From a virus (lineage: Duplodnaviria; Heunggongvirae; Uroviricota; Caudoviricetes), in IMG/VR virus record IMGVR_UViG_2648501787_000004, positions 1 to 22,547 of that record: a stretch of 22,547 nt of DNA. One strand, 5' to 3'. The notes under the pieces are model-generated. The model was given only the letters and a program-made list of their open reading frames with translations. It was not told the DNA's origin and did no database searches. Shown one piece after another: positions 4,883-22,547 of the stretch. Every line of letters begins with the position of its first letter. Position 1 is the first letter of the stretch. The translations under genes and the position numbers were made by a program.

Positions 4883-5581
4883 TTACTGCGAAAGTTTGTT
4901 AATGGAAAGGAAGCCGCCAAAGTTGCCGACGTTATTGCGAAACTTACAACCACTCAGGCATTTGCTGCATTTATCCTTCGTGATATCGGACGTCGGCTGG
5001 TCATATTCATCAGCGACAGCCGGACCGTGATAACCGCACTCATCACCGCGATAGGTCCAGGTGCAGGTATTAGCCAGCATGATGCGCCCCGGAAAAACAG
5101 CACCGTCCGTTTCCGTCGGCGTGGACAGTACAAAAGAGGCACTGACCGCGCTCAGTTCGCTGCACTGCTCGATGCGCCAGCGGCTGATCACCTCCTGCTC
5201 CGGATCGGCGTCACTGTTTCCGTTGACGAAGTTCACCGCATCCAGAAAACGGGCGTAAACCTTACGCCTGACCACCGTTCCGCCGACCAGACTCTGCAGG
5301 TCTTCCGCCATCCCGGTGACCATTCCGTGCAGGTTAGAAACCGTCAGTGTCGGACGGGCAGCACTGCCCTTGCCGTTCAGTTCAAATCCCGCCCCCTGAA
5401 TGGGGTATGCCTGATACTGCCGCCCCTGCCAGGTAACCGGCTCACCTTTTTCGTTCTGCTCATTACAGAAAAAATAACGTTCACCACCGACCTCTGTCAG
5501 ATCGATTTCCCAGAGCACCACCTGGGCTGACTGAGTGAGGCGTGTCGTCTCATGATGTGTTTCCTGTGGAATATCCTGCAT
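4883..5581 (-). CDS. L: Tail tip assembly protein L
   Basis: 232 aa, near-colinear with lambda L by recall (MQDI.QET...VVLWEIDLTEVGGERYFFCNEQNEKGEPVTWQGRQYQ...CSKCLSGCKFRNNVGNFGGFLSINKLSQ). Confidence 0.9.
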   Translation of the reverse strand: MQDIPQETHHETTRLTQSAQVVLWEIDLTEVGGERYFFCNEQNEKGEPVTWQGRQYQAYPIQGAGFELNGKGSAARPTLTVSNLHGMVTGMAEDLQSLVGGTVVRRKVYARFLDAVNFVNGNSDADPEQEVISRWRIEQCSELSAVSASFVLSTPTETDGAVFPGRIMLANTCTWTYRGDECGYHGPAVADEYDQPTSDITKDKCSKCLSGCKFRNNVGNFGGFLSINKLSQ

Positions 5582-5590
5582 CAGAGCCTC

Positions 5591-5920
5591 CTATGCCACG
5601 ACCTGTTCAAAATCTGCCGTTATGGTTACCCACAACGCCCCCACGCTTGCCGACCATTTACGACAAACCACCCTGATCGGCTTCCAGTCATAAGGTGGCG
5701 TCCACTGAAATGCGCGGACGCCGCCGTGCCGTTCCAGAAAAGCTTTTAAAGATGGGTGTTCACATTTACGAACACGTATCGTCACGCTGTAAGTCGACAA
5801 CTGGTTATTCAGTCCCGCCGCACGACGCTGTTCATAACCATCGCCCAGCTTCACTGTCACCACTTTCGGCTCTGATACCACATTCATATCCGGGCGCACT
5901 TTCCAGTGAAACGTCTCCAT
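5591..5920 (-). CDS. M: Tail tip protein M
   Basis: 109 aa beginning METFHWKV...GDGY.QR...TYSV...WTPPY.W..I.V.C.KWS, matching lambda M by recall; its start codon overlaps the H stop by 1 nt. Confidence 0.9.
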   Translation of the reverse strand: METFHWKVRPDMNVVSEPKVVTVKLGDGYEQRRAAGLNNQLSTYSVTIRVRKCEHPSLKAFLERHGGVRAFQWTPPYDWKPIRVVCRKWSASVGALWVTITADFEQVVA

Positions 5921-8900: not shown

Positions 8901-8985
8901 GAAGGTTTTTGATACGGGGAATTTCATTTTTAAACTCTGCCGCATCAATCCCCAAATCAATGACCAGGTTGGCTATCTGGTCCAT
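5920..8985 (-). CDS. H: Tail tape measure protein H
   Basis: Track ORF 5920-9015 (1031 aa); the probable start is the internal Met (MDQIANLVIDLGIDAAEFK, cf. lambda MAEPVGDLVVDLSLDAARF); C terminus ...INNDGTNGQIGPAALKVVYD...ARDGGRLSGAYR is lambda-H-like; long Q/E/R/A-rich coiled-coil centre typical of tape measure proteins. Confidence 0.88.
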   Translation of the reverse strand: MDQIANLVIDLGIDAAEFKNEIPRIKNLLNGAASDAERSSARMQRFMERQTQAARQTTQAASSAATAASVHAQTVEKNAQAHERMAREVEKTRQRMEALSQKMREEQAQAMALAEAQDKAAAAFYRQIDSVKQASAGLQELQRIQQQIRQARNSGGIGQQDYLALISEVTAKTRVLTQAEEEATRQKVAFIRQLKEQATRQNLSSSELLRAKAAQLGVSSAAEVYIRKMEQAGKATHSLGLKSAAARQEIGVLIGELARGNLGALRGSGITLANRAGWIDTLMSPKGMMLGGVIGGIAAAVYGLGKAWYDGQKEGEEFNRQLSLTGHYAGVTAGQLWTLSRAISGNGITQHAAAGALAQVVGSGAFRGNDIGMVARAAAKMERSVGQSVSDTINQFKRLKDDPVNAAKALDNELHFLTATQLEQIRVLGDQGRSSDAARIAMSALAEETGRRTADIDNNLNALGSTLKYLSDLWSRFWDAAMNIGREDSLDEQIAALQEKVSRAKRLPWTASSSQVEYDQQRLNDLQEKKRQKDLQDAKEQAERNYQEQQKRRNAENAALNRMNETEAARHQREIARINAMQYADQAVRDAAIQRENERYEKAIKKKTSENRNDEATRLLLQYSQQQAQVEGQIAAARQSAGLTTEKMTEAHKQLLALQQRISDLAGKKLTADEKSVLAHKDELIQALTLLDAKQQELQKQTALNDLKKKSIQLASQLAEEERALRQQHDLDIATTGMGDKQRQRYQTQFSLQQKYQQQMEQLERDSKQKGTYGTDEYRNAEQMLTDSLNRQLNENRRYWQEQELMQADWKNGAMRAFQNFTESADNAAGTAEQMFTAAFNSAGNALATFCTTGKLNFRSFTASLLSDLAKIMSQMVMMQAVKGIGSAFGWGSAAAASVTPNADGGVYQSADLSRYSGTVVNRPTFFAFAKGAGVMGEAGPEAILPLRRGADGKLGVVADIGGSGMAMFAPQYNIEINNDGTNGQIGPAALKVVYDLGKKAAADFMQQQARDGGRLSGAYR

Positions 8986-9319
8986 AACGCACACCTCCGG
9001 AAATACCTTCCCCAAGATGCATCAGTTCTTCGTCCGTTCGCTCCGGTATCCCGTTCTCTTCCGGTAAAAGGCTGAAATCAGCCACCGCAGCATCACTGCT
9101 GCCGGACACCATTCTCACGATCAATGCCTTCAGCGAGGCAAACTGCGCATCCATCCACACATCACTGAAGCTCTGCATCCGGAAATAATCGCCCCACTCC
9201 CCAAGCTCAGTGGCCGACATTTCCGACAGCATCCGCCGCCAGTCTGCCCGCCGGAACTCCCGGGCAAGCCGCATGACAAACTGCATTTCCCGCGTCAGGA
9301 CTTTTCCGGCGTCAGCACC
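8957..9319 (-). CDS. T: T segment of the tail assembly chaperone G-T fusion (reached by -1 frameshift from G)
   Basis: The -1 frame relative to G is open from 9319 (just after an in-frame TGA at 9320-9322) to 8957, overlaps the last 7 codons of G, and ends inside the start of H; classic G/T arrangement upstream of the tape measure gene. The stand-alone ATG at 9286 is probably not used. Confidence 0.7.
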   Translation of the reverse strand, partial: GADAGKVLTREMQFVMRLAREFRRADWRRMLSEMSATELGEWGDYFRMQSFSDVWMDAQFASLKALIVRMVSGSSDAAVADFSLLPEENGIPERTDEELMHLGEGISGGVRYGPDSQPGH

Positions 9320-9684
9320 TCATGCTCCAAATCCCCGGCATTCTCAATGGCTCCCATACCGCTCAGCGACAGAACCATCTCCGCCCCCGCACCCAGGGCA
9401 TCATACGACCATGTTGTAATTACGGATGCGCAAAGCGTCTCAACATCCTGAGACTGTTCCGCATTCCACAGTGAGCGGGAAACCAGCCAGGCATTGATAT
9501 CCATCCCCATCCGCAGAAAAGCAATCTGTCGTTCAGCCTCCGGCAGTTCTCCCTCTTCGGCATCAAACTTTGCCGTTCGCTGCTGAACAAACGCCAGATA
9601 TTCAATTCTCTGCAGCCCGGACAGCTCACTGAGCACCACGGACTGCTTTTCATAATTAAACGTGCCCTGTTTCAGAAACATCAT
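9295..9684 (-). CDS. G: Tail assembly chaperone G
   Basis: Track ORF 9295-9723; the probable start is MMFLKQGTFNYEKQSVVLSELSGLQRIEYLA (cf. lambda G MFLK...LSELSALQRIEHLA) at ATG 9684, with GGTGGAG 5 nt upstream; position between V and T/H. Confidence 0.85.
   Translation of the reverse strand: MMFLKQGTFNYEKQSVVLSELSGLQRIEYLAFVQQRTAKFDAEEGELPEAERQIAFLRMGMDINAWLVSRSLWNAEQSQDVETLCASVITTWSYDALGAGAEMVLSLSGMGAIENAGDLEHEVLTPEKS
9301..9307 (-). promoter_or_regulatory. Candidate -1 slippery site for the G-T frameshift (G GAA AAG in the G frame)
   Basis: Only 7 G codons overlap the open -1 frame (9298-9319). Within them, GAA AAG (zero frame) can re-pair as GGA AAA after a -1 slip; lambda uses G GGA AAG. 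The heptamer is non-canonical at one position, so the assignment is tentative. Confidence 0.4.
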
Positions 9685-9696
9685 GTTCTCCACCTG

Positions 9697-9720
9697 CAAA
9701 AAAGCCCCGGATAACCGGGG
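9697..9720 (-). terminator. Intrinsic terminator / attenuator between V and G
   Basis: Minus strand: CCCCGG-ttat-CCGGGG stem-loop (9705-9720) followed by C TTTTTT G (9698-9703), located in the gap between the V stop (9742) and the G RBS. Confidence 0.5.
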
Positions 9721-9741
9721 CAAATGATGAGTATCGTCCTG

Positions 9742-10485
9742 TTAACCTGCGGCGCTGACAGTCACCGTAGCCACTGCCACAAAATCGCCGTCAGAAGTCA
9801 TGCCCACAATGCTGACACTGCCCTGCTTCACGCCTTTCACCGTGGCCACAAGCCCGTTCAGGGTCACCGTGGCAGTCTGTGGATCTGTCGAATGCACACT
9901 GATCGCTTTGTCACTGGCTCCGTCAGGTTTTACTGTAAAGGTCAGCGTGGTGGTTGCTCCCACATTGACACTGGCGGATGCCGGTGCCACCGTCAGCCCG
10001 GTAACGCCCACAGTTTGAGTGCCCTCCTCTGCCAGATATGGACGCCCCACACCGCTGATTTTCACGGTGCGGGTCATCACGTCTTTTGAGGCAATGGTTT
10101 TACCCAGTGAACTCAGCCAGCCACGGAAAACATCAACAGTGCCGTTGGGATATTTGATACGAAACGCGCAGACTTCACCGGAGTCGAACAACTGAACCAG
10201 TTTTTTCTGCCCGCTGTCACCCGGACGCCAGGCCAGCGTCGCCGAAGTATCACCGACGGATTTCTGCCCCTGGGTTGTCGTTTTCCAGTCTGCATCTTCA
10301 TCATCGAGATAAGTGTCATCTTCTGCATCAGCGGTCATTTCGCCAGGTTGCAGATCCTTCACCATCGCAAGACGCAGCCAGTCAGTGTCCGACAGAGGAT
10401 TCGCAAACGCATCGCCGTTGCCGGTATACATCCAGAACGTCGTCCCCGCACCTTTCGTCTTTGCCAGTGGATTTGGTGTGGTCAT
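9742..10485 (-). CDS. V: Major tail tube protein V with C-terminal Ig-like (Big_2-type) domain
   Basis: Track ORF 9742-10560; the probable start is MTTPNPLAKTKGAGTTFW (ATG 10485-10483) with AAGGAGG upstream (revcomp of 10491-10497); strong lambda V similarity (KGAGTT.W.Y.G.GD..ANPLSD.DW.RLA.VKDL.PGE...DDEDADW...GQGQKS.GDTS.TLAW.PG..G...NGTVDVFRGW.SS.GK). Confidence 0.9.
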   Translation of the reverse strand: MTTPNPLAKTKGAGTTFWMYTGNGDAFANPLSDTDWLRLAMVKDLQPGEMTADAEDDTYLDDEDADWKTTTQGQKSVGDTSATLAWRPGDSGQKKLVQLFDSGEVCAFRIKYPNGTVDVFRGWLSSLGKTIASKDVMTRTVKISGVGRPYLAEEGTQTVGVTGLTVAPASASVNVGATTTLTFTVKPDGASDKAISVHSTDPQTATVTLNGLVATVKGVKQGSVSIVGMTSDGDFVAVATVTVSAAG

Positions 10486-10495
10486 TACCACCTCC

Positions 10496-10897
10496 TTAAT
10501 TCGTGTACGTGATCTGGTACGTGATTTCCGCCATCGCCCAGGTGGCCATCTCATTATCACGTTGATAGTTAAAACCGAGTGGGATCAGGGTGTCGATGAG
10601 TCCGGAAAGTGCCGGTACATCATTCAGAGCCGGGAAAATGGTGCTCTCCATCCACATATCCAGCTCTGAATCCGGTGCCTTTGCCCGGATGAAGACGGCA
10701 ATATGCAGAACAGCCTGCCAGTCATCTTCATCCGTCATTTTTCCGGTGTACTGAGCATCACTCAGCCACACCGCCACGGCAGGCAGTTCCTGCGCATCAA
10801 TAAATGCCGGAAGCCCGTCAAAAAACGTGGCGCTGTCTCCACACTGTTCCCGAAGGCGTGCCAGTACGACCTGGCGGATTTGTGTATGTCGGTTCAT
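10496..10897 (-). CDS. U: Tail terminator protein U
   Basis: Track ORF 10496-10909; start at Met5 (MNRHTQIRQVVLARL...) gives an ATGA overlap with the Z stop; motifs ATFFDG.PA..D....PAVAV.L....YTG......W.A.LHI.VF......PDSELD.WMES.I.P matching lambda U by recall. Confidence 0.88.
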   Translation of the reverse strand: MNRHTQIRQVVLARLREQCGDSATFFDGLPAFIDAQELPAVAVWLSDAQYTGKMTDEDDWQAVLHIAVFIRAKAPDSELDMWMESTIFPALNDVPALSGLIDTLIPLGFNYQRDNEMATWAMAEITYQITYTN

Positions 10898-11484
10898 CGG
10901 GTCAGCCATAATCTCAGTTGTTGTTTCAGTGCATACCCCAGCTGTTTCGGCATTTCCGCAGCAATGATGCGGTCGCGGGCATCTTCAAATGCCTGTGTCA
11001 GCGGTCCGGACAGCGGGATTTTCACTACCTCCACAGGAAGACGATTTTTCCTTGGCCTGCCCTGATAGTCATGCCCTGTTGCAAAACGCGCTTCAGGAAG
11101 ACGCCTCAGAACATGCCAGCGGCCATTCGCCAGTTGCTGAACAAATGCCCCCCGGAAAAAGTATTTTCCCACTCTCAGTCCTTCACCAGCACGCCGCCGT
11201 GTTGTGTTCAGTTTGATGGCGGGCAGATTGCCCCGGTTAACGCGGATCCTGGCCGTCATTTTTCCTGACGGACTGGCTTTAAACACCCGGACACGCTGAC
11301 GTACCAGTTTCAGGGGGATCCCTTTCACCTGGTTATCTCCCGCAACGGTATTCCCGGCAACCTGCCGGGTGGCAACCGAGACCGCTTTCTGTGCCACACG
11401 GTTTATCGCCCATGCGCTGGCCTGTGGCACCATACGGGTATCAAGGCTGTTCAGATTGCGGATGGCATTCTCAAGCCCCTTCAT
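10894..11484 (-). CDS. Z: Tail completion protein Z
   Basis: 196 aa; lambda-Z-like features by recall (KGLE.A..NL, IKVNRG.LP.IKL, NGRWHV, VVKIP...PLT.AF, LP..LGYAL..QLR); position between FII and U. Confidence 0.85.
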   Translation of the reverse strand: MKGLENAIRNLNSLDTRMVPQASAWAINRVAQKAVSVATRQVAGNTVAGDNQVKGIPLKLVRQRVRVFKASPSGKMTARIRVNRGNLPAIKLNTTRRRAGEGLRVGKYFFRGAFVQQLANGRWHVLRRLPEARFATGHDYQGRPRKNRLPVEVVKIPLSGPLTQAFEDARDRIIAAEMPKQLGYALKQQLRLWLTR

Positions 11485-11495
11485 CCCACACCTCT

Positions 11496-11771
11496 TTACT
11501 CAATAAAGATCATTGGCTTACCGTTAAAGCGTTCATGCCGTGTGACCGTCCAATGTTGTCCGTCATAAACAACGCGATCCCCGCGCCGTGGGCGGTATCC
11601 CGAAGAAAACACCACCAGAGAGACCGCAGGTCCGGACAGAGCATTCAGCTCTGCCAGTGTTTCTCCCGGGATCACAGTCATATCGACATCATTAATCGAG
11701 GCTGTCTTTCCCATCTTTCTGACAGTGATCGCATCCATACGCGCTGCCAGCCGGGAAAAGGGATCAGACAT
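11496..11771 (-). CDS. FII: Head-tail joining protein, FII-like
   Basis: 91 aa; N terminus MSDPFSRLAARMDAITVRKMGK resembles lambda FII MADFDNLFDAAIARADETIRGYMG, plus an RRGD motif; its start overlaps the preceding gene's stop by 8 nt. Confidence 0.7.
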   Translation of the reverse strand: MSDPFSRLAARMDAITVRKMGKTASINDVDMTVIPGETLAELNALSGPAVSLVVFSSGYRPRRGDRVVYDGQHWTVTRHERFNGKPMIFIE

Positions 11772-12087
11772 TGAGTTTTACCGGCACTTCTTCTGCACTG
11801 GTTCCGGCATCTGCCCAGACAACCCCGACCAGCGGATCAGAGCCGCTGTTAGTCAGCTGAACTTTTCCGGACTTCAGATAAACCTTCTTACCCGTTTTCA
11901 TGTCATCCGTTTTCAGCTTAGGCAGCATAAACACACCTTCGGTCAGGCCGTCGCCTGTTTCACCCTGTGGAATATCGGTCAGCGCCACCGCAAAAACATC
12001 ACCCACCTGCACCAGGTCTCCGCTGCTGATGGCTGCACTGGCAACAATCGCCACCGTTTTTCCTTCTTCTACAAAATTCTTTGCCAT
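11764..12087 (-). CDS. Small head protein (DUF2190-like; possible head decoration or head completion role)
   Basis: Track ORF starts at a non-ATG codon (12132); the likely start is ATG 12087 (MAKNFVEEGKTV...) with GGAGA 6 nt upstream. ~107 aa, Gly/Val-rich, sits immediately after the capsid gene as in many HK97-like head modules. Family assignment is from memory and tentative. Confidence 0.55.
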   Translation of the reverse strand: MAKNFVEEGKTVAIVASAAISSGDLVQVGDVFAVALTDIPQGETGDGLTEGVFMLPKLKTDDMKTGKKVYLKSGKVQLTNSGSDPLVGVVWADAGTSAEEVPVKLNV

Positions 12088-12100
12088 AACTGTCTCCGCA

Positions 12101-12149
12101 CAGCCCCGTTCAGGGGCTGATTTCAGGTACAAAAAAAGCCCTTACGGGC
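12101..12149 (-). promoter_or_regulatory. Two hairpins between capsid gene 1 and the next gene (weak terminator plus RBS-proximal hairpin)
   Basis: Minus strand: GGCCC-gtaa-GGGC followed by TTTTTTT (12131-12149), then CAGCCCC-tgaac-GGGGCTG (12101-12119) just upstream of the RBS of the small head gene. Confidence 0.4.
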
Positions 12150-12173
12150 CATCAGAGTTGTTGTCTGCGACGT

Positions 12174-14132
12174 TTACGCCGTACATTTCACCAGACCGCG
12201 GTGATCAACTGGCGCGACACCGGCGTCAATACGCACTTTCGTTGTCACGCCATCCACACTGAAGCCCTCCATCTGATCAATATATGGCGTATCCACACCG
12301 TTGAGATAAGCCACTTCAATCGTATCGGAGCCTTTTGACGCAGCCAGGTAGAAGGTGGTCTGGCTGTTATCATCAAGACGAGGCTCTGCAATAACGGTCG
12401 CAAAATCTTTCACCGGGTTAATAATACCGGCGTTAATGTCAGCCCCCTTGACACTTGAGGAGCGAATGACCTGGTTAGCAACAGACTCCATCGCCGTCGG
12501 TACCAGTACGAACGCAGGACGAATATTCAGATGACGCTCCCCCTCTTTCTGAACGCGCATCAACTGGCGGGCTTTATCCAGCGATGCCACGTCCATTGCA
12601 GCGCTCTCCAGTACGTTTGCATGTTTCGCTTTATCGAACAGACTTACATTATCTGTGGAGATTTTCGGGTTAGACGTCAGAATGGCATAAACCAGATCGG
12701 CAATAGTGGATTTCGCCGCACGGCCCAGCTTCATCGGGACATCGGTCAGCATATTCAGATCATCATTGATAATGGCCTGACGGGTGATACTGAACAGCTC
12801 GCCATAGGTCGCCAGTGCAATAGTGGCCTGTTTATCTCCGGTGGTGACGTATTTATATTCCGCCCCTTCACGCACCTGACGCAGAGCACTGAAGCCCCCC
12901 ATACCCACACGATGGGCAATTTTAAAATCAGACAACTGACCTTTCCGCGTCCACTGTTCATAGGTTTCAGGGGCATCTTCCCAGCCCTGCAGAATGGCTT
13001 TGTTCGCAACATCCAGCAGAATATTACCGAAGTCAGACGTACTGTGTGTGAACGCCGCACCGACCATCTGCATCGGGTTATAACTGGAAATCCCAATACC
13101 CCGTTCAGTCAGTGACATACGGGCATATTCACGCAGGGTCATCCCGTTGTAGACATTATCACGTTCGGTTTTTTCAAATCCGGCACGCGCCATCAGCGCC
13201 TGGCGAATCCCGTCCCCCACAAAATTACCGTTACCGGCATAAATATGAGCCGGGGTATTTTTATTGGATGGCGTGGACTCGCGCCCCATCTCGTTCAACA
13301 GCTTTTCGCGGGCCTGCTCCAGCGAACATTCAGGATCGGCAAGACACTGAGCCTGCAGCGTCTGATAACGCCCGCCAAACATGGCAAACAGATCATTAAT
13401 ACCGTTTACACGCGCTTTTTGCTCTGCCAGTACCTGCGCACGGATGCTGTTTTCATCCACCACGGGTGCTGCTGCCTGCACTGGCGTCCGGGAGGCTGCA
13501 GGTTCATCATCCTGTACGCGTGGAGCACTGTTGCGTGGCGGAGTAATCATGTTTCGAATGGATTCCGGCATCTTTTTAAATTCCTCTGTACGTTTTGACT
13601 GAATACATGCCATTGCCTTAACGGCTGGCGTCACCTGATCAGCAAATCCATGTGCCAGACATTCGGCACCGGACATCCAGGTCTCATCCGCCAGCATGGC
13701 AGCAATTTCATCGGTGGTTTTCCCGGTTTTCTGTGCATAAGCGGGTAACAGAACCGCCTCAACCTTATCGAGCAGGTCGGCATAGGTGCGCATGTCCTCC
13801 GCATCACCGCCCGTAAAGCCAAATGGTTTATGAATCATCATGAAGGTGTTTTCCGGCATAATGACCGGGTTTCCCACCATCGCAATGACCGACGCCATTG
13901 ACGCCGCCACACCGTCGACATAAACGGTAATGGACGCACCATGTGTTTTCAGTGCATTAAAAATGGCGATGCCTTCAAAGACATCGCCACCCGGTGAATT
14001 GATATGGAGATTAATGTGGGTGATATCGCCCAGTGCATTCAGATCACTGATAAACTGCTTCGCTGTAACACCCCAGAAACCAATCTCGTCATAAATATAA
14101 ATATCCGCGTCACTCTGGTGACCAGCCTGCAT
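12174..14132 (-). CDS. Prohead protease / scaffold / major capsid fusion protein (copy 1)
   Basis: Track ORF 12174-14393 extends into the portal gene; the likely start is MQAGHQSDADIYIYDEIG (ATG 14132-14130), 14 nt after the portal stop. N-terminal ClpP/S49-like protease region (HINLHINSPGGDVFEG...VDGVAASMASV), C-terminal region with capsid-like character; ~652 aa. Confidence 0.85.
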   Translation of the reverse strand: MQAGHQSDADIYIYDEIGFWGVTAKQFISDLNALGDITHINLHINSPGGDVFEGIAIFNALKTHGASITVYVDGVAASMASVIAMVGNPVIMPENTFMMIHKPFGFTGGDAEDMRTYADLLDKVEAVLLPAYAQKTGKTTDEIAAMLADETWMSGAECLAHGFADQVTPAVKAMACIQSKRTEEFKKMPESIRNMITPPRNSAPRVQDDEPAASRTPVQAAAPVVDENSIRAQVLAEQKARVNGINDLFAMFGGRYQTLQAQCLADPECSLEQAREKLLNEMGRESTPSNKNTPAHIYAGNGNFVGDGIRQALMARAGFEKTERDNVYNGMTLREYARMSLTERGIGISSYNPMQMVGAAFTHSTSDFGNILLDVANKAILQGWEDAPETYEQWTRKGQLSDFKIAHRVGMGGFSALRQVREGAEYKYVTTGDKQATIALATYGELFSITRQAIINDDLNMLTDVPMKLGRAAKSTIADLVYAILTSNPKISTDNVSLFDKAKHANVLESAAMDVASLDKARQLMRVQKEGERHLNIRPAFVLVPTAMESVANQVIRSSSVKGADINAGIINPVKDFATVIAEPRLDDNSQTTFYLAASKGSDTIEVAYLNGVDTPYIDQMEGFSVDGVTTKVRIDAGVAPVDHRGLVKCTA

Positions 14133-14145
14133 CCTGAACCAGGAA

Positions 14146-15654
14146 TTATTCTTCGGACTGGTCGTCGGTGTGCTGCGGCTCCTGTCGTTTCGTTGCGGCA
14201 CTGCTGCCTCCTTTATCACTGGCCGGATCGGTATCAAATACCAGATCCAGCTTGCGGTTTTCATCAATTTCGGCCTTGCGCCGACGTTTGACATCATCCG
14301 GATTACGACCACCAGCACGTACCCAGTCTGATTCTGTCGCCGCTCCACCACGAATCTGGATTTTCCAGGCCTCAGCCTCCTTAACAGGGTCAATCCACGG
14401 CATCACCGGTCCGGAATACACCGCGGTATACAGTGAAGAACGGTCAAGATCGCGGGGTAGCCTGATAACACCGGATGCCACAGCCTGTTTCAGCCAGGCA
14501 CGATACATCGGGCGGGTGACGGCACCAATAAACCAGTCCTGCAGGATCAGGTAGCCATCTGTGGATTCAACCAGCTCCTGACGCTGGGCGCTGTAAGTGC
14601 CGTTATAGTTGCGTGCCGTACTGGAAAAACTCAGACGACTGCCCGCCGCCACGGCACGCAACTGACCATTACGAAAAGTTTCAAGGTTAGGATTGGGACG
14701 ATCCGACTTCACCATTCCGATTTCTTCGCCGGGTTTCAGATCGTCGTAAATAATGCCTGGCTGAATGGTAAGCTCGCGTTCATTCTCCTTGCTGCCATTA
14801 CCATCCGGTTCATAGCTCTGCCCGTCGCCTTTCCGGATGTACATCCCCAGAGCAGCGGCGACCCTTGCTGCAGTCAGCTCAGAATCTTCATACTCTTTCA
14901 GGGCACTGAGGCGGATCAGCACACCGGACAACAAAGACGTCCCGCGCATCTGGTGCAGACGGCGAACAAATTTAAGATGCAGCATTCGCTCTGCATCCAC
15001 TTCTTTGGTTTCCATCTGCCGCCAGGATACGGGACGACTTTTATACACCAGATATTTTTCGGGACGCCCCCAGTCATCAACAAACACGCCCTGATTCAGC
15101 CTGTTGCTCTCATCACTGGTCATGGGAATAAAGTCTGGCTCGAGCGCCTCCAGCCAGAAATGAACACCGGCAGAAGGCGTCAGGTTGTTTATGCGCCCGG
15201 AAACCATCTGGGCAAACACCTCACCATCGCGCAGCCAGGTACGCAACATCAGACGTTCCAGCATCGGACGGGTAAACTGCCCGGTGACTTCCGGGCTGAC
15301 AGACCATTCACTCCATCGGGTGCGTATCTCCGCTGCCAGATCACGGGCAATGGCCCCATTGCGTAATACCGGATGTGGCTCGACAATAATCCCGTTTTTC
15401 CCCACCACCCGTTCTTCCAGCTTGTCAAATACACCAATAACCAGATCGTGGTTGTTATCAAGGTAACGGGCCTGCTCACGTAACGACACGGCCCCGTACT
15501 GGCTTAACTGGTCGGCAGTTCGGTTTTCCCGCCGGGCTTTGTGTGTCCGCGTCGTTTTTACGGCCTCATAAGCCTGGATCACCGCACGGGAACGCAGCCT
15601 TGCCGCTTTCCATCCTGGTGAAAAAACGCCAATCACATCATCAAGAATTGCCAT
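14146..15654 (-). CDS. Portal protein
   Basis: Track ORF 14146-15726; the likely start is MAILDDVIGVF at ATG 15654-15652, overlapping the W stop by 1 nt (TGATG); ~500 aa, acidic C-terminal tail; position between W and the capsid gene. Confidence 0.85.
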   Translation of the reverse strand: MAILDDVIGVFSPGWKAARLRSRAVIQAYEAVKTTRTHKARRENRTADQLSQYGAVSLREQARYLDNNHDLVIGVFDKLEERVVGKNGIIVEPHPVLRNGAIARDLAAEIRTRWSEWSVSPEVTGQFTRPMLERLMLRTWLRDGEVFAQMVSGRINNLTPSAGVHFWLEALEPDFIPMTSDESNRLNQGVFVDDWGRPEKYLVYKSRPVSWRQMETKEVDAERMLHLKFVRRLHQMRGTSLLSGVLIRLSALKEYEDSELTAARVAAALGMYIRKGDGQSYEPDGNGSKENERELTIQPGIIYDDLKPGEEIGMVKSDRPNPNLETFRNGQLRAVAAGSRLSFSSTARNYNGTYSAQRQELVESTDGYLILQDWFIGAVTRPMYRAWLKQAVASGVIRLPRDLDRSSLYTAVYSGPVMPWIDPVKEAEAWKIQIRGGAATESDWVRAGGRNPDDVKRRRKAEIDENRKLDLVFDTDPASDKGGSSAATKRQEPQHTDDQSEE

Positions 15655-15872
15655 CAGAACCTCGCCAGCCGGTACCCGGGATGCCCCCGTCGTCGTGTAA
15701 TCAGAGCCGCAAGGCGGCGCTCCCACTCCTGCCGTCCCTGCCGGATCTCAGATAAGTTTTCCATGGTCATCTGCTGACCATTAAAGGTGACGGATTTTCC
15801 GTCCAGCACCGCCATTTCAGCTTCCGTATAACGCTGAATCATGGCTTCGATATCATTCTGGTTCATAACCAT
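15654..15872 (-). CDS. W: Head-tail joining / head completion protein, gpW-like
   Basis: 72 aa (or 70 from Met3); C-terminal RRRGHPGY resembles the lambda W C terminus (RRRGPAGFYV); placed between terminase large subunit and portal as in lambda. Confidence 0.6.
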   Translation of the reverse strand: MVMNQNDIEAMIQRYTEAEMAVLDGKSVTFNGQQMTMENLSEIRQGRQEWERRLAALITRRRGHPGYRLARF

Positions 15873-16975
15873 CCTCCGGAAGTCAGCCAGGGGTTAACAT
15901 CGTCAGTTACTGTTTTCTTCCGTTTTTGTTTTTTAACAGGCGTGGATACCGGTTCCGGTGAGGGTGACGGTTTGGTACTGTCCGGGACACACTCCAGCCA
16001 GGTTTCCCGGCTCGCCCATTCCGGTGCATCCGGCCAGCGGATCTTTTCGTATCCATGCAGAATGACCAGAGCCTCGGCATACACCATCAGGTCAAAAGCT
16101 TCGTTGGCACCGCGACCCGGCTTACTCCATTTCCCGTCACTGCTCCGCTCTTCATACGTCAGTTCGTCGTAAAACCAGCTCCCCAGCCAGTCAGGGAAAT
16201 GCACATAGCCGGGACCTGGAGAGTCACGCCATAACGCGTTATTCACCCGGTCTTTCAGGGCATCCGTCTGAAGAAGCCAGAGCGGCACATCACCTGCGGC
16301 CTGCGCCCGTCGGCCCGTTCGTCCGGTGTTATCAGGGAATGTACGGGTGATCAGTTTTGCGCGCCGGATGCTGTCGCCCTTAAACAAGTAAATACGTTTA
16401 CCAAGGCCATCACGACGGCAACGACGCCAGAATTTATAGGCATTATCAGTGACCCCGTCTTCACCGCCGGAATCCACCGCCATTGCCATCAGTCGCATTT
16501 GTTGAGAAGGATCGGAGGCCAGCGGCCAGCTTTTATGAAAAACATCCGTCAGCAGGACATCCCAGTCTTCCGGATAGCTGGCCGGATCAATTCGCTGGCT
16601 CTCCCCGTCGCTGTCACCGCGCAATGACTGCGTGATGTTGTAACGATCAATAATCCAGCGTTCGCCACGGCTGCCATAGCCCGTTACCTGAACCACAAAA
16701 CGGCGATGACGTCCCGCCTGCACATCAACTGTCGCCACCAGGAAATTAACGCCATCCGGCACACTGCGGGAAGGAACTGGCTCTGCCCGCTGCTCAAGCA
16801 GTTCACTTTTTCGTTGCTCCATGCTGGCACGGGGAAGATAAGGTAATCCCCAGTCGGTATTGATAACCGTCTTGAGTGTTTCTTCACTTCCGGTTGTCTC
16901 GTATTCCTGTTCTGCAGTAAGCAGTTTGTAAACGAGTTGCGAGAGTGTCTGGTAAGCAGCTGCCGGACCCTCCAT
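15863..16975 (-). pseudogene. A: Terminase large subunit, C-terminal (nuclease) domain only; N-terminal ATPase domain absent
   Basis: 370-aa ORF resembling roughly the C-terminal half of lambda gpA (e.g. VATVDVQ..., WDSKKRRNEALDCFVYA-like region ...GANEAFDLMVYAEAL). Upstream in frame there are only 11 unrelated codons before a stop (17009-17011), and the sequence above 16980 is AT-rich non-coding DNA. Confidence 0.75.
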
Positions 16976-16979
16976 CCAG

Positions 16980-17440
16980 GAAGAAGTAAATAAAAGGTAA
17001 CTAAATGATTATAAGGTACTATTGAGTTATGCCCCCTACAACATAGTCCCAGATTTAGTACCTGCTTAAGCGATAAAAAAGCCAAAAAGGAAGCAATATT
17101 AATTATTGCCGCTATGCATGATCACAATGACAAATCAGAGGCGGAATTCCGCTCTCGGAACTCACATATGAGAAACGATATTTCTTCCACCGATACCCTT
17201 TATTTGGGTATCGCGAGTAAGCCCCAAAATCTGGGTGTTACTCTTACTACCCAAACTACGGGTAGTTTCCGTAGTTTCATAGTCGAGTTGCAGATCTGCA
17301 ACTCGCCACCAGTTGCTAAGTGCATTTTTGCACTTTCGATAATATCAACCAGTTACCGCCGTAAGTGCTCCGGCTTCCTCCACTGGTAAGTATTTTTCGC
17401 GCTCTCCCTCCGTTGTTGAGAACGGCGACGGTATGCCAGC
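16980..17440. other. AT-rich, palindrome-rich non-coding segment replacing the middle of the terminase large subunit gene
   Basis: Visibly AT-rich compared with flanking genes; contains the perfect 12-bp palindrome GCGGAATTCCGC (17141-17152), hairpin CGATACCC-n7-GGGTATCG (17191-17213), inverted repeat AAACTACGG-n7-CCGTAGTTT (~17252-17276) and a perfect 20-bp palindrome GAGTTGCAGATCTGCAACTC (17285-17304). No ORF with recognisable similarity. Confidence 0.6.
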
Positions 17441-17640
17441 AACTCAAGAACTCTGGTTCGTATGTTGCGCATATCAACGCCGTTAAGCTCAATACCGTCA
17501 CGGCGCATCACCTCAGCCACCACACGCGCGTAATTTTCAGCGGTGACTGTATCCGGCTGCGCGGCCTGTTCGTCAGCCAACTGGCTGATTCCACCAGCAC
17601 AGCGGATTAATCGCAGTATTTCAGATTCGGTCATTATCAT
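17353..17640 (-). pseudogene. Short ORF translationally coupled to the small terminase gene; probably the N-terminal remnant of the large terminase gene
   Basis: Its ATG overlaps the Nu1-like stop by 4 nt (17637-17640), the position where the large terminase gene normally starts; the last ~30 codons are Arg/Gln-rich and run into the AT-rich segment, suggesting read-through into non-native sequence. Homology to the gpA N terminus is weak. Confidence 0.35.
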
Positions 17641-18122
17641 GCCTGTTTTGCGACCTCATTCACTACGTCATTTTTTACCATCCGGCTGATAATCTGATTA
17701 CGCAAATCGTCAATAATTGACTGCACTCTGTTTACTGCCATCGGTTTAAGCCCGGCATCACGTGCCAGAATATTGGGGAGTTTTGCCAGTTCCTCGCTTA
17801 CGATTTCCCCCCATATAGCCATCTCTTTTCGCACATCATCGGCGGGTATGAGTTGCGCCGTTTCCTGTTCGAACTTGAGGCGCTCACGTTCGGACTGATA
17901 CCAGGCCTTACGGTCATGTGGCTCCATTTCTTCCAGTGATGCCGGAACGGGAAGATCAAGAAAACAGGTCAGAATGTCAGTCACCCGATAGAGTTTTAGC
18001 TTGTCATGCCCTCCGGCTGGCTGGATGTTTTTCAGCCTTGCCGCCGCAGTCTGACGACATATTCCCGCTATCGCCGCCAGTTGATTAATGTTCAGCATCA
18101 GATTTTTCAGTTCTCGATCCAT
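17637..18122 (-). CDS. Terminase small subunit, Nu1-like
   Basis: Track ORF 17637-18209; the likely start is MDRELKNLMLNINQLAAIAGICRQTAAARL (ATG 18122-18120, GGAG 7 nt upstream). N-terminal helix-turn-helix followed by a charged coiled region (ERERLKFEQETAQL), laid out like lambda Nu1; first gene after a cos-like region. Confidence 0.65.
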   Translation of the reverse strand: MDRELKNLMLNINQLAAIAGICRQTAAARLKNIQPAGGHDKLKLYRVTDILTCFLDLPVPASLEEMEPHDRKAWYQSERERLKFEQETAQLIPADDVRKEMAIWGEIVSEELAKLPNILARDAGLKPMAVNRVQSIIDDLRNQIISRMVKNDVVNEVAKQA

Positions 18123-18289
18123 ACCCGCTCCAGAATGTTTTAAACATGCATCTTGCGAACAACTTTCAGAAGAGGTCAAAAAATGCGCTATATGTTGAGC
18201 ATAAAACAAGCAAAATTAACATGCCAAAAATAAAAACACTTAAAATTCAATATCATAGAAAGATGATGATGACGAATGAAAATGCAAAA
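18123..18289. promoter_or_regulatory. cosB-like AT-rich region with repeated TGCAT-containing motifs between the cos candidate and the small terminase start
   Basis: Minus strand: ...tttttGCATtttcattcgtcat...tttttggCATGttaattttgcttgttttatgc...caagaTGCATGtttaaaac...; contains TTCGTCAT and TGTTTTTATTT, which I recall from lambda cosB. Possible terminase small subunit or IHF binding sites. Confidence 0.35.
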
Positions 18290-18370
18290 ACTAGCCTTTT
18301 TCCGCGCCGCTCCCGCCTCGCGGCAGGCCACCTCACCGGGAGGACCCACCCAAAAAAGGCGACTGTCACT
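18290..18370. promoter_or_regulatory. Candidate cos site (cosQ/cosN-like GC-rich element)
   Basis: Minus strand reads GGGTCCTCCCGGTGAGGTGGCCTGCCGCGAGGCGGGAGCGGCGCGG; the GGGTCCT..CCGGTGA stretch resembles my recollection of the lambda right-end flank (GGGTCCTTTCCGGTGATCC), and the element sits ~170-250 bp upstream of the Nu1-like start. The exact nick positions cannot be assigned. Confidence 0.4.
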
Positions 18371-18432: not shown

Positions 18433-19074
18433 TCAGCGACCAATCACCACAACCTGACCACCGTCACCTTCGTCTGCCGTGCTGATCTCCTGAGAAACCA
18501 CCCGCGACCCCACACGCATTTCACCGTACAGAACAGGCACAACATTGCCCTGGGCAACCATGTTATCCAGAGAGGAGAAATAGGTGTTCTGCTTACCGTT
18601 ATCCGTGGTGCTGGCTGTTGCTGTGCTGGCTTTCGGTGCCAGCATCTGTGCAACACCACCAAGTGTCATCGCCGCCCCCATTGAAAAGAGAATGTCACTG
18701 AAAGCGATACTGATTCCTGGCATCCAGATTGCCGTAGCAATCAGCGCCGCACCAAGCACCGCCTGAAACACGCCGCCACTTTTGGCACCAGCCAGACGCG
18801 GTACGATGTGGATCACGGCACCATTTTCCAGCGGTTCATTAAGACGGGCTGATAATTCGTTTTCGCCTGTATCACGCCCGGCAATACGCACCTGATACCA
18901 ACCATCGCTCAGTTTCTGACGAAACGCTGGGATCTGCATGGCCAGCGCCCGGATGGCTTCGGCCCCCGTTTTCACATGAAGATCGATGCGGCGGCCAAAT
19001 CGTTGTAAATCCCCGTAAAGGCAGATGCGTGCCATGCCCGGTGACGCCAGAGGGAGTGTGTGCGTCGCTGCCAT
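18433..19074 (-). CDS. I: Tail assembly protein I, second copy (mosaic allele)
   Basis: 213 aa; the N-terminal ~110 aa and C-terminal ~70 aa are almost identical to the I protein at 3590-4237, while the central hydrophobic segment differs (IATAIWMPGISIAFSDILFSMGAAMT versus IAVAWWNPVGWLGAAAVSGMYAAGASMI). Confidence 0.85.
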   Translation of the reverse strand: MAATHTLPLASPGMARICLYGDLQRFGRRIDLHVKTGAEAIRALAMQIPAFRQKLSDGWYQVRIAGRDTGENELSARLNEPLENGAVIHIVPRLAGAKSGGVFQAVLGAALIATAIWMPGISIAFSDILFSMGAAMTLGGVAQMLAPKASTATASTTDNGKQNTYFSSLDNMVAQGNVVPVLYGEMRVGSRVVSQEISTADEGDGGQVVVIGR

Positions 19075-19133
19075 TTGTCGGTATACCTCTCTCGTTTGCT
19101 CAGTTGTTCAGGAATATGGTGCGGCAGCTCGCC
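18972..19133 (-). pseudogene. 3'-terminal remnant of a K gene (truncated at the duplication boundary)
   Basis: The sequence upstream of I copy 2 matches the K/I overlap of copy 1 only up to ~19133, after which it diverges; no K-like N-terminal coding sequence follows. Lower boundary inferred by offset from copy 1. Confidence 0.45.
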
Positions 19134-19163: not shown

Positions 19164-21077
19164 TCATGCTCCATTCGATTTCAGCAATCCACGATAATCG
19201 AGGGCCGCGACACCTGCATCTATGCGCACCTTCCAGGCGACACCATCAACAGTAAAGCCCACCTGCTCCTCAAGATATGGCGTATCCATACCATCAAGAT
19301 AAGCGACTTCTATTGTGTCCATCCCCTTAGCTGCGGCTACATACCATTCCTTGCTATTGGCCTTATCAAGACGTGGCTCAACAATTACTTCTGCCATATC
19401 TTTCACAACGTTAATGATGCCGGGGTTCTGATTGATAGTGCCCTCATCACCAACCGGAAAGACTGATGACGATGACAGAATGGCGCGACGCGCGGCAGAT
19501 TCCAGCGCGGCAGGGACCAGAACAAAAGCAGGGGTAATATTCAGTGAGTCGCCGTTAGCATCCTCCTGGAGGCGCATCAGCTTACGGGCTTCATCAAGCC
19601 CCACCATGTCCATATCCTTCGCAATAAGATTTTTATGATCGGCATGGAATAACGCTTTACCATCCGTAAACTTGCCGTTGCTGGTTAACAGGAGATAAAC
19701 CAGATTGCCAACTGTTCTGGCGGCTGCGCGTCCCATTGCCATGGGGATTGTAGTTAACTGGGTCAGGTCATCGTTGATAATGGCCTGACGGGTAACGGAA
19801 AAAATATTCCCGTACGTGGCCAGCGCAATAGGTACACCTTTATCGCTGGTGGTGATGTATTTATATTCCGCACCTTCCGGTACTTTATCCAGCTTTGAAA
19901 AACCATTCAGACCAACGCGCTTTGCTTCATGAAAGTTTGAAAGCGAACCGGTACGCGTCCATTTCTGGAACGTTTCGCCGCTGTCCTGCCAGCCTTTCAG
20001 TACAGATTTTTCAGCCCCACCAGCCAGAATATGAGAAAAATCACTGCTGCTGTGTGTAAAAGCCGCATTAACAACCTGCGAGCGATTAATAAAACCACTC
20101 ACAGTGATACCACGATCAACCAGTGATGCCTGGGCCATTTCAAAAAGGCTCATCATCGCGTAAGGGTTGCCTCGTTCAGGGCGTTCATACCCAAGACGGG
20201 AATAAAGCCCCTGACGAATTGCATCACCTGTTATGTTTCCGTTTCCGGCATAGATATGAGGCGGGGTATTTTTATTGGATGGCGTGGACTCGCGCCCCAG
20301 CTCGTTCAACAGCTTTTCACGGGCCATTTCCGGTGTACATGATGCATCTTCCAGACACGCCATTTTGATCCCGTCGTAACGACTGCCGAACAGGCTAAAC
20401 ACTTCACTTATTCCATTGATGCGTTTCTGTTCATTACCAGCAATATTTGCCGCTCCCTGTGGCGGTGTAATCATTCCTTTAATGGTTTCCGGCATATGTA
20501 AAAAATCTCCTGTGCGCTTCGATTCAATTCGCGCCATTGCTCTGACGGATGGCAACAATTCATCAGCAAAACCGTGCTTAAGGCATTCTTTCCCGTCCAT
20601 CCAGGTTTCATCTTCCAGCATGGCGGTAATTTCCTGTGCTGATTTGCCCGTTTTTCTGGCATAAGCAGGGACTAACACGGTTTCCACCTTATCCAGCAAA
20701 TCAGCATAATCACGCATATCACCAGCATTTCCGCCAGAGATACCCCACGGCTTATGTATCATCATCATGGCGTTTTCCGGCATCACAACACGATCGCCAG
20801 CCATTGCGACCACCGAAGCCATTGAAGCCGCAACACCATCGATATAAACCGTAATGTCTGCCGGATGATTCCGTAGCAGGTTATAGATGGCGATGCCTTC
20901 AAACACATCACCACCTGGTGAATGGATCCTCAGATTGATATGTGAAACATCGCCAAGGGCTTTCAGGTCTTCCGCGAACTGCTTTGCAGTAACACCGAAG
21001 CCGCCAATCTCCTCATAGATAGATATATCCGCCGCTCCGCGAACATCCGCCGCCTTAATGGTGTACCAGCGATTCAT
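19164..21077 (-). CDS. Prohead protease / scaffold / major capsid fusion protein (copy 2, divergent)
   Basis: 637 aa, colinear with copy 1 over its whole length but clearly diverged (by eye roughly 60-70% identity); same ClpP/S49-like motifs (HINLRIHSPGGDVFEG, VDGVAASMASV). ATG 21077-21075 with a G-rich RBS; ATGA overlap with the upstream small ORF. Confidence 0.85.
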   Translation of the reverse strand: MNRWYTIKAADVRGAADISIYEEIGGFGVTAKQFAEDLKALGDVSHINLRIHSPGGDVFEGIAIYNLLRNHPADITVYIDGVAASMASVVAMAGDRVVMPENAMMMIHKPWGISGGNAGDMRDYADLLDKVETVLVPAYARKTGKSAQEITAMLEDETWMDGKECLKHGFADELLPSVRAMARIESKRTGDFLHMPETIKGMITPPQGAANIAGNEQKRINGISEVFSLFGSRYDGIKMACLEDASCTPEMAREKLLNELGRESTPSNKNTPPHIYAGNGNITGDAIRQGLYSRLGYERPERGNPYAMMSLFEMAQASLVDRGITVSGFINRSQVVNAAFTHSSSDFSHILAGGAEKSVLKGWQDSGETFQKWTRTGSLSNFHEAKRVGLNGFSKLDKVPEGAEYKYITTSDKGVPIALATYGNIFSVTRQAIINDDLTQLTTIPMAMGRAAARTVGNLVYLLLTSNGKFTDGKALFHADHKNLIAKDMDMVGLDEARKLMRLQEDANGDSLNITPAFVLVPAALESAARRAILSSSSVFPVGDEGTINQNPGIINVVKDMAEVIVEPRLDKANSKEWYVAAAKGMDTIEVAYLDGMDTPYLEEQVGFTVDGVAWKVRIDAGVAALDYRGLLKSNGA

Positions 21078-21283
21078 TGTTCCCCCACCGATGCAAAACC
21101 ATTCTGATTAAGCCAGGTGTTTACGGCATGTCTGACAATCTGCGCCACACCTGGTAATGGTTGGTCAGGATGATGATTTATATGGTCGATCCTGTACTGC
21201 TTAAGGCGCATAACGGTCTGCGCATCCAGATGAACGGAACCACCTCTGGTATCACCTGTGTTCAGGTCATTAATACAACTCAC
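21074..21283 (-). CDS. Hypothetical small protein (69 aa), translationally coupled to capsid gene copy 2
   Basis: GTG start at 21283-21281 with GAGGAAG 6-7 nt upstream; stop overlaps the capsid-2 ATG (ATGA). No recognisable family from sequence alone. Confidence 0.45.
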   Translation of the reverse strand: MSCINDLNTGDTRGGSVHLDAQTVMRLKQYRIDHINHHPDQPLPGVAQIVRHAVNTWLNQNGFASVGEQ

Positions 21284-21385: not shown

Positions 21386-21407
21386 AAAAAAGCCGGATTT
21401 CTCCGGC
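21386..21407 (-). terminator. Rho-independent terminator downstream of the primase gene and iteron array
   Basis: Minus strand: GCCGGA-gaaa-TCCGGC stem-loop (21392-21407) followed by TTTTTT (21386-21391). Confidence 0.65.
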
Positions 21408-21537
21408 TTCTGTCACTCGTTGCTTAAAACGGTATGTTATCCCCGTACGGATCATCATTCCCCGCCTGTTGTTTTGGTGTGCTTCGCTGTCATAGGCTTT
21501 ATCTCACAGCAGTAAATTAAAATTTTTGCGTTTTAAC

Positions 21538-21766
21538 CCTTCACCTGTTCACCTTTTGATATTTTCTCTATTAATTCATAATGTTAAGGGGTGAACAGTT
21601 TCAAAAAAACTATTCACCAACTGTTCACCACTGTTCACCCTTGAAGCTCAATAAACAATCAAAAAGGTGAACAGTGAATAGTTTGGTGAACAGTTCATAA
21701 ATAACTGCTCACCCTATAATATACTGATATAAAAGATATTTATGACAGGGTGAACAGTGGTGAACA
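21538..21766. repeat. Iteron array of TGTTCACC octamers in both orientations (P4 ori/crr-type)
   Basis: Perfect TGTTCACC at 21546-21553, 21622-21629 and 21632-21639; perfect reverse-orientation GGTGAACA at 21590-21597, 21666-21673, 21685-21692, 21749-21756 and 21759-21766; one-mismatch variants at 21611-21618, 21674-21681 and 21706-21713. Embedded in AT-rich DNA directly downstream of the primase stop. Confidence 0.75.
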
Positions 21767-21780
21767 GTTATTCCATAAGT

Positions 21781-22547
21781 TTAATTTTTGCTATCGTCAT
21801 TAGTGACCGATACACATGATGGCATCCAGTCTTCTGATTCCTCCGTCAGTGTCACGTTTGAACGCAAACCGTGCTTCGTTTTCCGTTTCATATACTCCCT
21901 GCCATATTCCGCCATTGCCCCCGGCATATCTTTACCGAAGCGCGTCAGTGTTACAGGTTTACCAAACCCATGTGCCCTCATATAAGCCAGATAGGCATGA
22001 TAGAGATACCTGCGTGGGCTGAATGGCACAATTTCAGCATTACCCACTAACAGGCCATCACACATTACCGACGCCATGAGATAGCCGCAGAAGTCCACCA
22101 GCGAATCCCCCTCTCGCTTTATCGCCAGTGCTTCTTCAGATTTCTGCTGCTCATATAACAGGCGTCTGGCTTCGTCCTGGTTAGCAAACCGTGTAAGCAG
22201 ATGGCGAATCACTACCGCCAGCTCACCTTCTATTTTTTCCGCCAGCATTGGATCACGTTCGTTCTCCGGTACAACTTCCGAAAAATTGAATATCACCCGA
22301 CGACGTGAGATCCCCCCGCTGCGGTCACTGAATGACATGGCGTTATTGTTAACCGCCAGCACTACTGCCGGAATACGCGTTGAGTAGGGGGCTTTGTGTT
22401 TCGGGTCAATTGCCACCTTGTCACCGCCTGTAATAGCCTTAATCCCTGCTCCATCACCAGCGTAGCGGGTCATATCCGGCATGATAATCAGCGAAAAGCC
22501 AACCACTAACGCGCGTTCCCTTGCATCTTCCAGCGCCTTCATGCTTG
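21781..22547 (-). CDS. Phage/plasmid primase, P4 family, C-terminal region (partial; 5' end outside the window)
   Basis: Open frame from the window edge to the stop at 21781; contains ITGGDKVAI...RRRVIFNFSEVVPENERD...IEGELAVVIRHLL, which matches my recollection of the conserved C-terminal region of P4 alpha-type primases (D5_N/primase_Cterm). Direct adjacency to TGTTCACC iterons supports this. Confidence 0.7.
   Translation of the reverse strand, partial: SMKALEDARERALVVGFSLIIMPDMTRYAGDGAGIKAITGGDKVAIDPKHKAPYSTRIPAVVLAVNNNAMSFSDRSGGISRRRVIFNFSEVVPENERDPMLAEKIEGELAVVIRHLLTRFANQDEARRLLYEQQKSEEALAIKREGDSLVDFCGYLMASVMCDGLLVGNAEIVPFSPRRYLYHAYLAYMRAHGFGKPVTLTRFGKDMPGAMAEYGREYMKRKTKHGLRSNVTLTEESEDWMPSCVSVTNDDSKN

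Follow-up and report, generated by a model that had tools for sequence, protein, structure and literature searches.

A phage satellite with a P4-like iteron array, probably embedded in the gpA-type terL gene of a lambdoid helper prophage

Phage-inducible chromosomal islands (PICIs) that sit within helper late genes were described as helper-embedded PICIs by Tommasini, Mageeney & Williams (2023, NAR Genom Bioinform 5:lqad036; PMC10111431), who reported 491 elements at 14 sites in nine lambdoid late genes. The elements are co-oriented with their targets and carry no replacement sequence; four zones were defined in them (Integration, Bro, Replication and Late), and capture of helper late genes was reported (PMC10111431). 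Excision and replication after mitomycin C have been shown experimentally for one of them, 11capE (PMC10111431). In PICIs of Gram-negative bacteria (E. coli), the functional ori was mapped 3´ of pri-rep, with sets of iterons flanking AT-rich DNA (Fillol-Salom et al., 2018; PMC6092414). Here, we analyzed a 22,547-nucleotide stretch of a Caudoviricetes record (IMGVR_UViG_2648501787_000004; the whole stretch is called the window), and in particular its last part, positions 21386-22547. A first-pass annotation had seen in this part a P4-type replication module next to a lambda-like head gene. We consider it highly probable that 21386-22547 holds the terminal part of the replication module from a ~10.4-kb Gram-negative PICI, helper-embedded at the sequence CTGGATG in the gpA-type terL of a lambdoid prophage. 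The term helper-embedded is used because the element is integrated in a lambdoid prophage terL, co-oriented with the late operon.

Initiator gene and iteron array

Two features make up the part of the replication module that lies in the window.

21781..22547, minus strand: 3´ part of the initiator gene (residues 352-605), encoding the end of the helicase domain and the origin-binding domain; the gene runs past the window
21536..21767, no strand assigned: iteron array and most likely replication origin, with 8 exact and 4 degenerate copies of (C)TGTTCACC in both orientations and three AT-rich spacers

The open reading frame (ORF) at 22545..21781 on the minus strand encodes residues 352-605 of a 605-residue 'DNA primase family protein', the full length of which was read from the locus of E. 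coli A20 (L001), 98.6% identical to ours. The full-length initiator contains D5_N, DUF5906 and Pox_D5 (SF3 helicase) domains. Its residues 145-595 are 50% identical to residues 320-771 of the P4 alpha protein (E=3e-163), and residues 497-593, encoded inside the window, match the P4 origin-binding domain in PDB 1KA8 (E=1.8e-24). By homology, then, the initiator C-terminus is a winged-helix origin-binding domain of the P4 alpha type. The gene had been called a P4-family primase in the first-pass annotation; the profile TIGR01613 (primase, P4 family, C-terminal) scored 95 bits, below its cutoff of 108.7 bits.

The resemblance to alpha does not extend to the N-terminus. P4 alpha starts with Zn_Ribbon_Prim and Toprim_3 domains, whereas the first 145 residues of the initiator gave no Pfam match even at E<=10 and have no similarity to alpha, so that an alpha-type Zn-ribbon/Toprim primase domain is absent both by Pfam and by comparison with alpha. 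The N-terminal domain of ~135 residues belongs to phrog_2850, a family of unassigned function unrelated to the alpha N-terminus. Structure prediction on P0001, a database protein 98% identical to the A20 initiator, suggests a fold that is Toprim-like only. Elsewhere in the databases, domains of the phrog_2850 type are fused to RepA/AAA_25-type and DUF927-type helicases. A common E. coli PICI replicon that combines the iteron and origin-binding domain of P4 with another N-terminus offers a convenient natural domain-swap for alpha-type initiators.

The first iteron lies 15 bp past the initiator stop codon (TAA, 21781-21783, minus strand). Exact octamers (TGTTCACC or GGTGAACA) occupy eight positions, 21546, 21590, 21622, 21632, 21666, 21685, 21749 and 21759; two octamers have one mismatch (21611, TATTCACC; 21706, TGCTCACC), and two more with two mismatches (21536 and 21673) were found by reading the sequence. 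Most copies have in common the extended core CTGTTCACC or ACTGTTCACC. The GC content of the array is ~33%, compared with ~50% in the flanking genes. Outside the array, the 22.5-kb window contains a single further exact octamer, at position 2038; the number expected by chance is 0.87 per window, and at least nine were reached in 0 of 100 shuffles. The eight perfect copies seen earlier after the primase stop are thus confirmed, with four degenerate copies in place of the three first counted, over 231 bp.

The octamer had also been named as the type I iteron of P4, and this is correct. The P4 record NC_001609 annotates an 'ori type 1 repeat' in both ori and crr, and the 11 exact TGTTCACC octamers in P4 are confined to the annotated regions (crr 5, ori 6). 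The iteron region of 11capE is ~98% identical to that of the window and has 8 exact TGTTCACC copies directly after the primase gene. A full-text search of the literature for TGTTCACC returned unrelated primers only. With iterons arranged around AT-rich spacers, which is typical origin architecture, the array is most likely the replication origin of the satellite.

A different role for the array has to be weighed. In P4, crr (4291-4590) is located directly 3´ of alpha (stop at 4636) and is distinct from ori, and the array in the window also lies within a transcription unit, upstream of its terminator. The array could then be a crr-like accessory or regulatory site, serving initiator titration, autoregulation, handcuffing or copy control, with the true origin elsewhere in the element. 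However, the complete copies of the element or its relatives (L001; L002, a circular record described below; and 11capE) have no second TGTTCACC cluster. Beyond the array they show isolated octamers, namely one within the primase gene (L001 and L002) and, in 11capE, one in a HEPN gene (9741). The functional mapping of the E. coli PICI ori 3´ of pri-rep (PMC6092414) and the AT-rich spacers between the iterons also speak for an origin, and we regard a crr-like site as decidedly improbable. The reading of the array as the satellite origin is kept in what follows.

Insertion in the helper terL and extent of the element

The rest of the window is divided between the satellite and the prophage in which it resides. 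The features on both sides of the junction are as follows.

16980..17352, minus strand: right arm of the satellite attachment site, with the arm-type motif TTATCGCTT at 17068-17076
16973..16979, minus strand: attR crossover core CTGGATG (7 bp), the junction of satellite and prophage terL
15863..16975, minus strand: C-terminal (nuclease) half of the helper terL, matching GpA_nuclease profile positions 6-294 of 294
140..15872, minus strand: remainder of the helper late operon, with W-like, portal, ClpP/capsid fusion, cement, head-tail, tail, tape measure, M, L, K, I and J genes

The long genes of the window are all on the minus strand, and the matches in the helper operon include the lambda-family portal, Phage_min_tail, Phage_tail_L and J. 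On the far side of the satellite, the A20 locus carries the N-terminal half of terL with a complete GpA_ATPase domain. The two terL halves flank the element in the window, in A20, in strain C6 and in an O157:H7 strain. In this gpA-type terL, the insertion point is the linker that separates the ATPase domain from the nuclease domain, and the satellite is co-oriented with the late operon.

The core CTGGATG is common to attL of A20, where ...CATTCTGGATG is joined to TAGGGTACA, and to attR, where ...CTTCCTGGATG is joined to GAGGGTCCG. When the outer flanks are joined, an uninterrupted terL frame results (...RIASFWMEGPAAAYQ...). From these junctions, the satellite attP is predicted to read ...TTCCTGGATGTAGGGT... 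and the restored attB in terL ...ATTCTGGATGGAGGGT.... In the reconstructed attP both arms retain the motif TTATCGCTT, at -97 and, doubled, at +112/+122, whereas the doubled TGTATTGC motif located at -81/+132 in the 11capE clade is absent.

Occupied and empty sites are both found in other genomes. Among 5426 complete E. coli genomes, which formed the set for all surveys reported here, the occupied junction (window 16830-17130) was detected in 80 at 85-100% identity, including strains of O157:H7, O121:H19 and O145:H28. The empty site, represented by the 504-bp join of the flanks, is intact in 1332, with best matches at 99.8% identity and 100% coverage. Because the junctions are precise to a 7-bp core, recur in 80 genomes and coexist with a common empty site, they document recurrent site-specific integration rather than fusion. 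An earlier suggestion of a satellite-prophage hybrid therefore gives way to a discrete 10.4-kb insert in terL. Likewise, the proposal that the left part of the window belongs to a satellite and not to a lambdoid prophage applies to 16980-22547 only, as 1-16975 is an ordinary lambdoid late operon.

Two details of the interrupted gene can be noted. A TAG stop directly after the core ends the ATPase half of terL (L001 22384-22389). On the other side, the ATG of the core (16973-16975) is the first codon of the ORF for the nuclease half (MEGPAAAYQ...), with no Shine-Dalgarno sequence evident upstream.

The satellite is ~10.4 kb in the A20 locus; the window contains the portion 16980-22547, and the rest lies beyond the window end. 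By megablast, the whole 17000-22547 segment is present in 122 of the surveyed genomes. Gene order in A20 and C6 is int, helix-turn-helix (HTH), Bro-N, YlcI/YnfO (on the opposite strand), Icd-like, hypothetical, DUF4222, primase, iterons, capsid fusion, gpK´, gpI-like, DUF1441 and a 95-residue ORF. Following the element upstream in A20 recovered the initiator N terminus, the integrase and attL, which the first-pass annotation had proposed to look for. The integrase, outside the window, is a clear tyrosine integrase of the P4 type. In the place of the alpA-like regulator, also proposed as a target, there is a 67-residue HTH protein with a weak match to HTH_17 (E=0.004) and a match to phrog_66, 'excisionase and transcriptional regulator' (9e-7). 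Several features of Gram-negative PICIs are present: unidirectional order, pri-rep followed by an iteron origin, a length of ~10 kb, a capsid homologue, and cos plus terS. The element also matches the five-component PICI definition of SatelliteFinder (PMC10085698).

How far the likeness to P4 goes bears on what kind of satellite this is. The octamer is identical to that of P4, the position of the array 3´ of an alpha-like gene corresponds to that of crr, identity to alpha stands at 50% in the helicase and origin-binding part, and the integrase resembles that of 11capE less than it does P4 int (33% identity, 207 bits). These observations would fit a satellite of the P4 kind that relies on a P2-type helper, or a hybrid of P4 and a lambdoid phage produced by illegitimate recombination. 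Yet of all 13 P4 proteins, compared by tblastn with the complete L001 element, int and residues 320-771 of alpha alone were matched; the element lacks sid, delta, psu, epsilon, orf88, gop, beta and cII. The initiator lacks the Zn-ribbon/Toprim primase domain, and the cos block, TerS, capsid and gpI described below are lambdoid and related to the surrounding prophage. A hybrid is in addition hard to reconcile with precise 7-bp-core junctions in 80 genomes and a common empty site. Either form of this explanation strikes us as very improbable indeed. Of the term 'P4-type' applied to the module, what stands is the iterons and the helicase/origin-binding half, and what falls is the primase domain, a second iteron cluster and the other P4 genes. 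A Gram-negative PICI embedded in its lambdoid helper is the reading that we carry forward.

Late zone, operon end and spread of the satellite

The satellite carries its own set of late genes; the first-pass annotation had raised the possibility of a satellite with its own capsid gene and cos/terS.

19164..21077, minus strand: satellite ClpP-like prohead protease/major capsid fusion of 637 residues, 57% identical to the helper fusion at 12174-14201
18433..19133, minus strand: tail segment, apparently captured, with a gpK C-terminal remnant and a complete gpI-like gene resembling helper K-I
18264..18347, minus strand: cos-like GC-rich block of 84 bp, near-invariant relative to the region upstream of helper terS
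17637..18122, minus strand: satellite TerS (DUF1441, Nu1-like, phrog_141), 68% identical to helper TerS
17353..17640, minus strand: 95-residue ORF, phrog_1561 (E=3e-51)

The satellite gpI protein is 85% identical to that of the helper (3590-4237), and the K´-I DNA is ~86% identical to the helper K-I junction (window 3537-4304); gpK´-gpI looks like a piece of captured helper late genes. The cos/terS region has a 78% nucleotide match to the helper terS region, and the block at 18264-18347 is likely cosN or the cos core, judging from its conservation. The lambda cosN sequence (GGGCGGCGACCT) has no meaningful match in the window. The two ClpP/capsid fusion genes (helper 12174-14201, satellite 19164-21077) share short 90-bp stretches with 93% DNA identity (13225-13314 and 20236-20325). 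Portal, head-tail adaptor/connector and terL genes were not found in the complete copies L001 and L002.

The 95-residue ORF is the last gene, at the right end, in every related PICI examined, including an O157:H7 copy without terS. It has no Pfam or NCBIfam match and may serve the satellite in a conserved role near attP. The possibility that it is a remnant or a replacement of the TerL N-terminus was rejected, since it has no similarity to TerL.

Between the origin and the capsid gene are the terminator and small ORF noted previously beside the replicon, and a trace of a lost gene.

21424..21486, minus strand: ssb 3´ remnant encoding ...KQQAGNDDPYGDNIPF plus stop (NDDPYGDNIPF), aligned with ssb of relatives
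21388..21411, minus strand: rho-independent terminator that ends the replication operon, originally the ssb terminator
21074..21283, minus strand: 69-residue ORF, phrog_4934 (E=4.6e-33), with a stop that overlaps the capsid gene start (ATGA)

Used as a query, the segment matches annotated ssb genes at its positions 1-91, and a hyp-ssb cassette between ori and the capsid gene is retained in C6, 11capE and O157:H7 F3113. Because the SSB C-terminal tip and the terminator align with the 3´ end of ssb in these relatives, we conclude that the window copy has lost the cassette. The 69-residue ORF is not called by RefSeq in relatives, where short ORFs on the opposite strand are called instead. A scan of 16900-22547 for sigma-70 promoters gave fewer matches than shuffled sequences and is thus of no informative value, and a search of the window and L001 with Rfam at gathering thresholds, in which P4 CI/C4/isrK-type RNAs were sought, gave no match.

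Loss of ssb raises the question of whether the element is still active. It could be a dead relic, a decayed PICI that permanently inactivates a cryptic prophage and has an origin without present function. Besides the ssb cassette, reduced to a 3´ remnant, the gpK fragment is a pseudogene, and many helpers of embedded PICIs look truncated and no virions were found (Tommasini et al., PMC10111431). In contrast, every satellite ORF in the window has an open frame, the iterons agree with those of other copies at every base, the arm-type motifs are retained in both att arms, and, terL excepted, the window shows an intact helper late operon. Spread of the module among genomes also argues against decay. 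The PICI replicon, at 90-100% identity, is present in 668 of the surveyed genomes, at several att sites; the replication and late module is also found with different integrases beside tRNA-Ile/mug and between thiM and rcnR. A free 10.8-kb circle is known as well: L002 (NZ_CP148328.1, plasmid pZ1323HEC0475-3) is a 10,790-bp circular record that consists of this PICI type alone, with a different integrase; the plasmid assembly probably represents a satellite that was excised or replicating. On balance, a relic seems unlikely to us, and we continue to read the element as a helper-embedded PICI.

Two further records merit mention. In L002, GGGTCCTCCCGG, the start of the cos-like block, occurs directly after an ssb-type terminator, which suggests a second cos copy. 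LR881103.1 (Escherichia phage vB_KppS-Ant, 16,548 bp, 'induced prophage') has 77% identity over 89% of the primase and iteron query and was the sole non-P4 match to this segment in the phage collection; it probably represents a packaged PICI that was entered in the database as a phage.

Proposed mechanism and comparison with known systems

From the sequence anatomy, the homologies, the precise junctions and the recurrence across genomes, we propose how iteron binding, origin firing, the order of events on induction and packaging might proceed. The integrated satellite would keep the packaging motor gene of the helper split, leaving the helper without intact TerL. On induction, helper replication and Q-dependent late transcription would probably extend in cis into the satellite, in line with the proposal made for 11capE. 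The integrase and the HTH protein would excise the satellite, which would restore terL and let the satellite start replication at its own origin. Most likely, the alpha-type domain at the C-terminus of the initiator contacts the 12 (C)TGTTCACC iterons that directly follow the initiator gene. The initiator would then melt the AT-rich spacers and load itself as the replicative helicase, allowing autonomous replication after excision, with priming by the Toprim-like N-terminal domain or by host DnaG. Packaging could occur through the satellite's own cos and TerS together with helper TerL, and the satellite capsid/protease gene may also contribute.

Several points weigh against this account. The window ends inside the initiator gene, and the integrase, the regulator and attL are known from relatives alone. 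The element is known here from its sequence, and binding of the iterons by the initiator C-terminal domain is deduced from homology. P4 requires two iteron clusters, ori and crr, and the element has one. Finally, no virions were recovered for the model of Tommasini et al., and transfer of embedded PICIs is still unproven (PMC10111431).

The comparison with P4 can be stated briefly. Alike are the iteron octamer, the SF3 helicase with its origin-binding domain, and an iteron block directly 3´ of the initiator gene, as in crr. The systems differ in the Zn-ribbon/Toprim primase domain of alpha, in ori and crr, which are 4.5 kb apart in P4 versus one cluster here, and in the P4 genes for helper exploitation, none of which is in the element.

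The Gram-negative PICIs described by Fillol-Salom et al. (2018, ISME J; 2019, Mol Cell), EcCICFT073 among them, are also ~10 kb and unidirectional, with a terminal int, an iteron ori that follows pri-rep, a capsid homologue, cos packaging by lambdoid helpers, and modular integrases. Beside int they have an alpA-like gene, where our element has the 67-residue HTH protein. However, they occupy chromosomal sites 'never used by prophages' (PMC6092414), and EcCICFT073 redirects packaging via Rpp (PMC9026076), whereas the element described here has a full TerS homologue. With capsid-forming PICIs (cf-PICIs; Alqurainy et al., 2023) the element has in common its own major capsid protein/protease and small terminase. 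Assignment to this group was rejected, as the element has no portal, connector or terL and is also much shorter.

Among published systems, a close one is the founder of the helper-embedded PICIs, 11capE (Eco567.11.E_Phage_cap_E_80, E. coli NRG857c), which has the same order of int, HTH, (Bro), YlcI, Icd-like, hypothetical, DUF4222, primase, ori and late zone. The two primases are 87% identical overall. They differ in the N-terminal part and are virtually the same from residue 145 onward. The helper-embedded arrangement was already published in 2023, and the replication module is essentially that of 11capE; since the principle is published and the module is near-identical, our finding mainly confirms known biology.

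Other parts of the element diverge from this founder. The late zone here consists of the ClpP/capsid fusion, gpI and TerS, while that of 11capE has an E-type capsid, a decoration gene and an HTH (Rpp-like) gene. The target is the linker of a gpA-type terL, in contrast to the published terL sites A:Terminase_1:132 and :245/246. Literature searches gave no earlier report of a PICI in a gpA-type terL. The label 'gpa'/GpA and the core strings are likewise absent from the supplementary files of Tommasini et al.; line wrapping could hide a match to the core, so the absence of the label is the stronger of the two. The integrase is 25% identical (89 bits) to that of 11capE, below the published 400-bit cutoff for inclusion in the clade. 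Thus, the gpA-terL site and the divergent integrase appear to be unreported.

We lean, by a small degree, toward the view that a second, unrelated lineage of tyrosine integrases evolved helper embedding independently and targets the gpA-type terL linker, outside the 14 (+1) published sites. If this is true, embedding in helper late genes is a convergent strategy and not a quirk of one integrase clade, and a PICI controls its helper by keeping the packaging motor gene split until excision, such that the prophage cannot package DNA until the satellite leaves terL. Use of the gpA-terL site by an integrase so distant from the published clade points to more than one origin of late-gene targeting. 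It also means that surveys based on integrase similarity and tools of the SatelliteFinder type under-count such elements: this site is occupied in 80 of the 5426 E. coli genomes, including prophages of O157:H7 and O121 Shiga toxin-producing E. coli.

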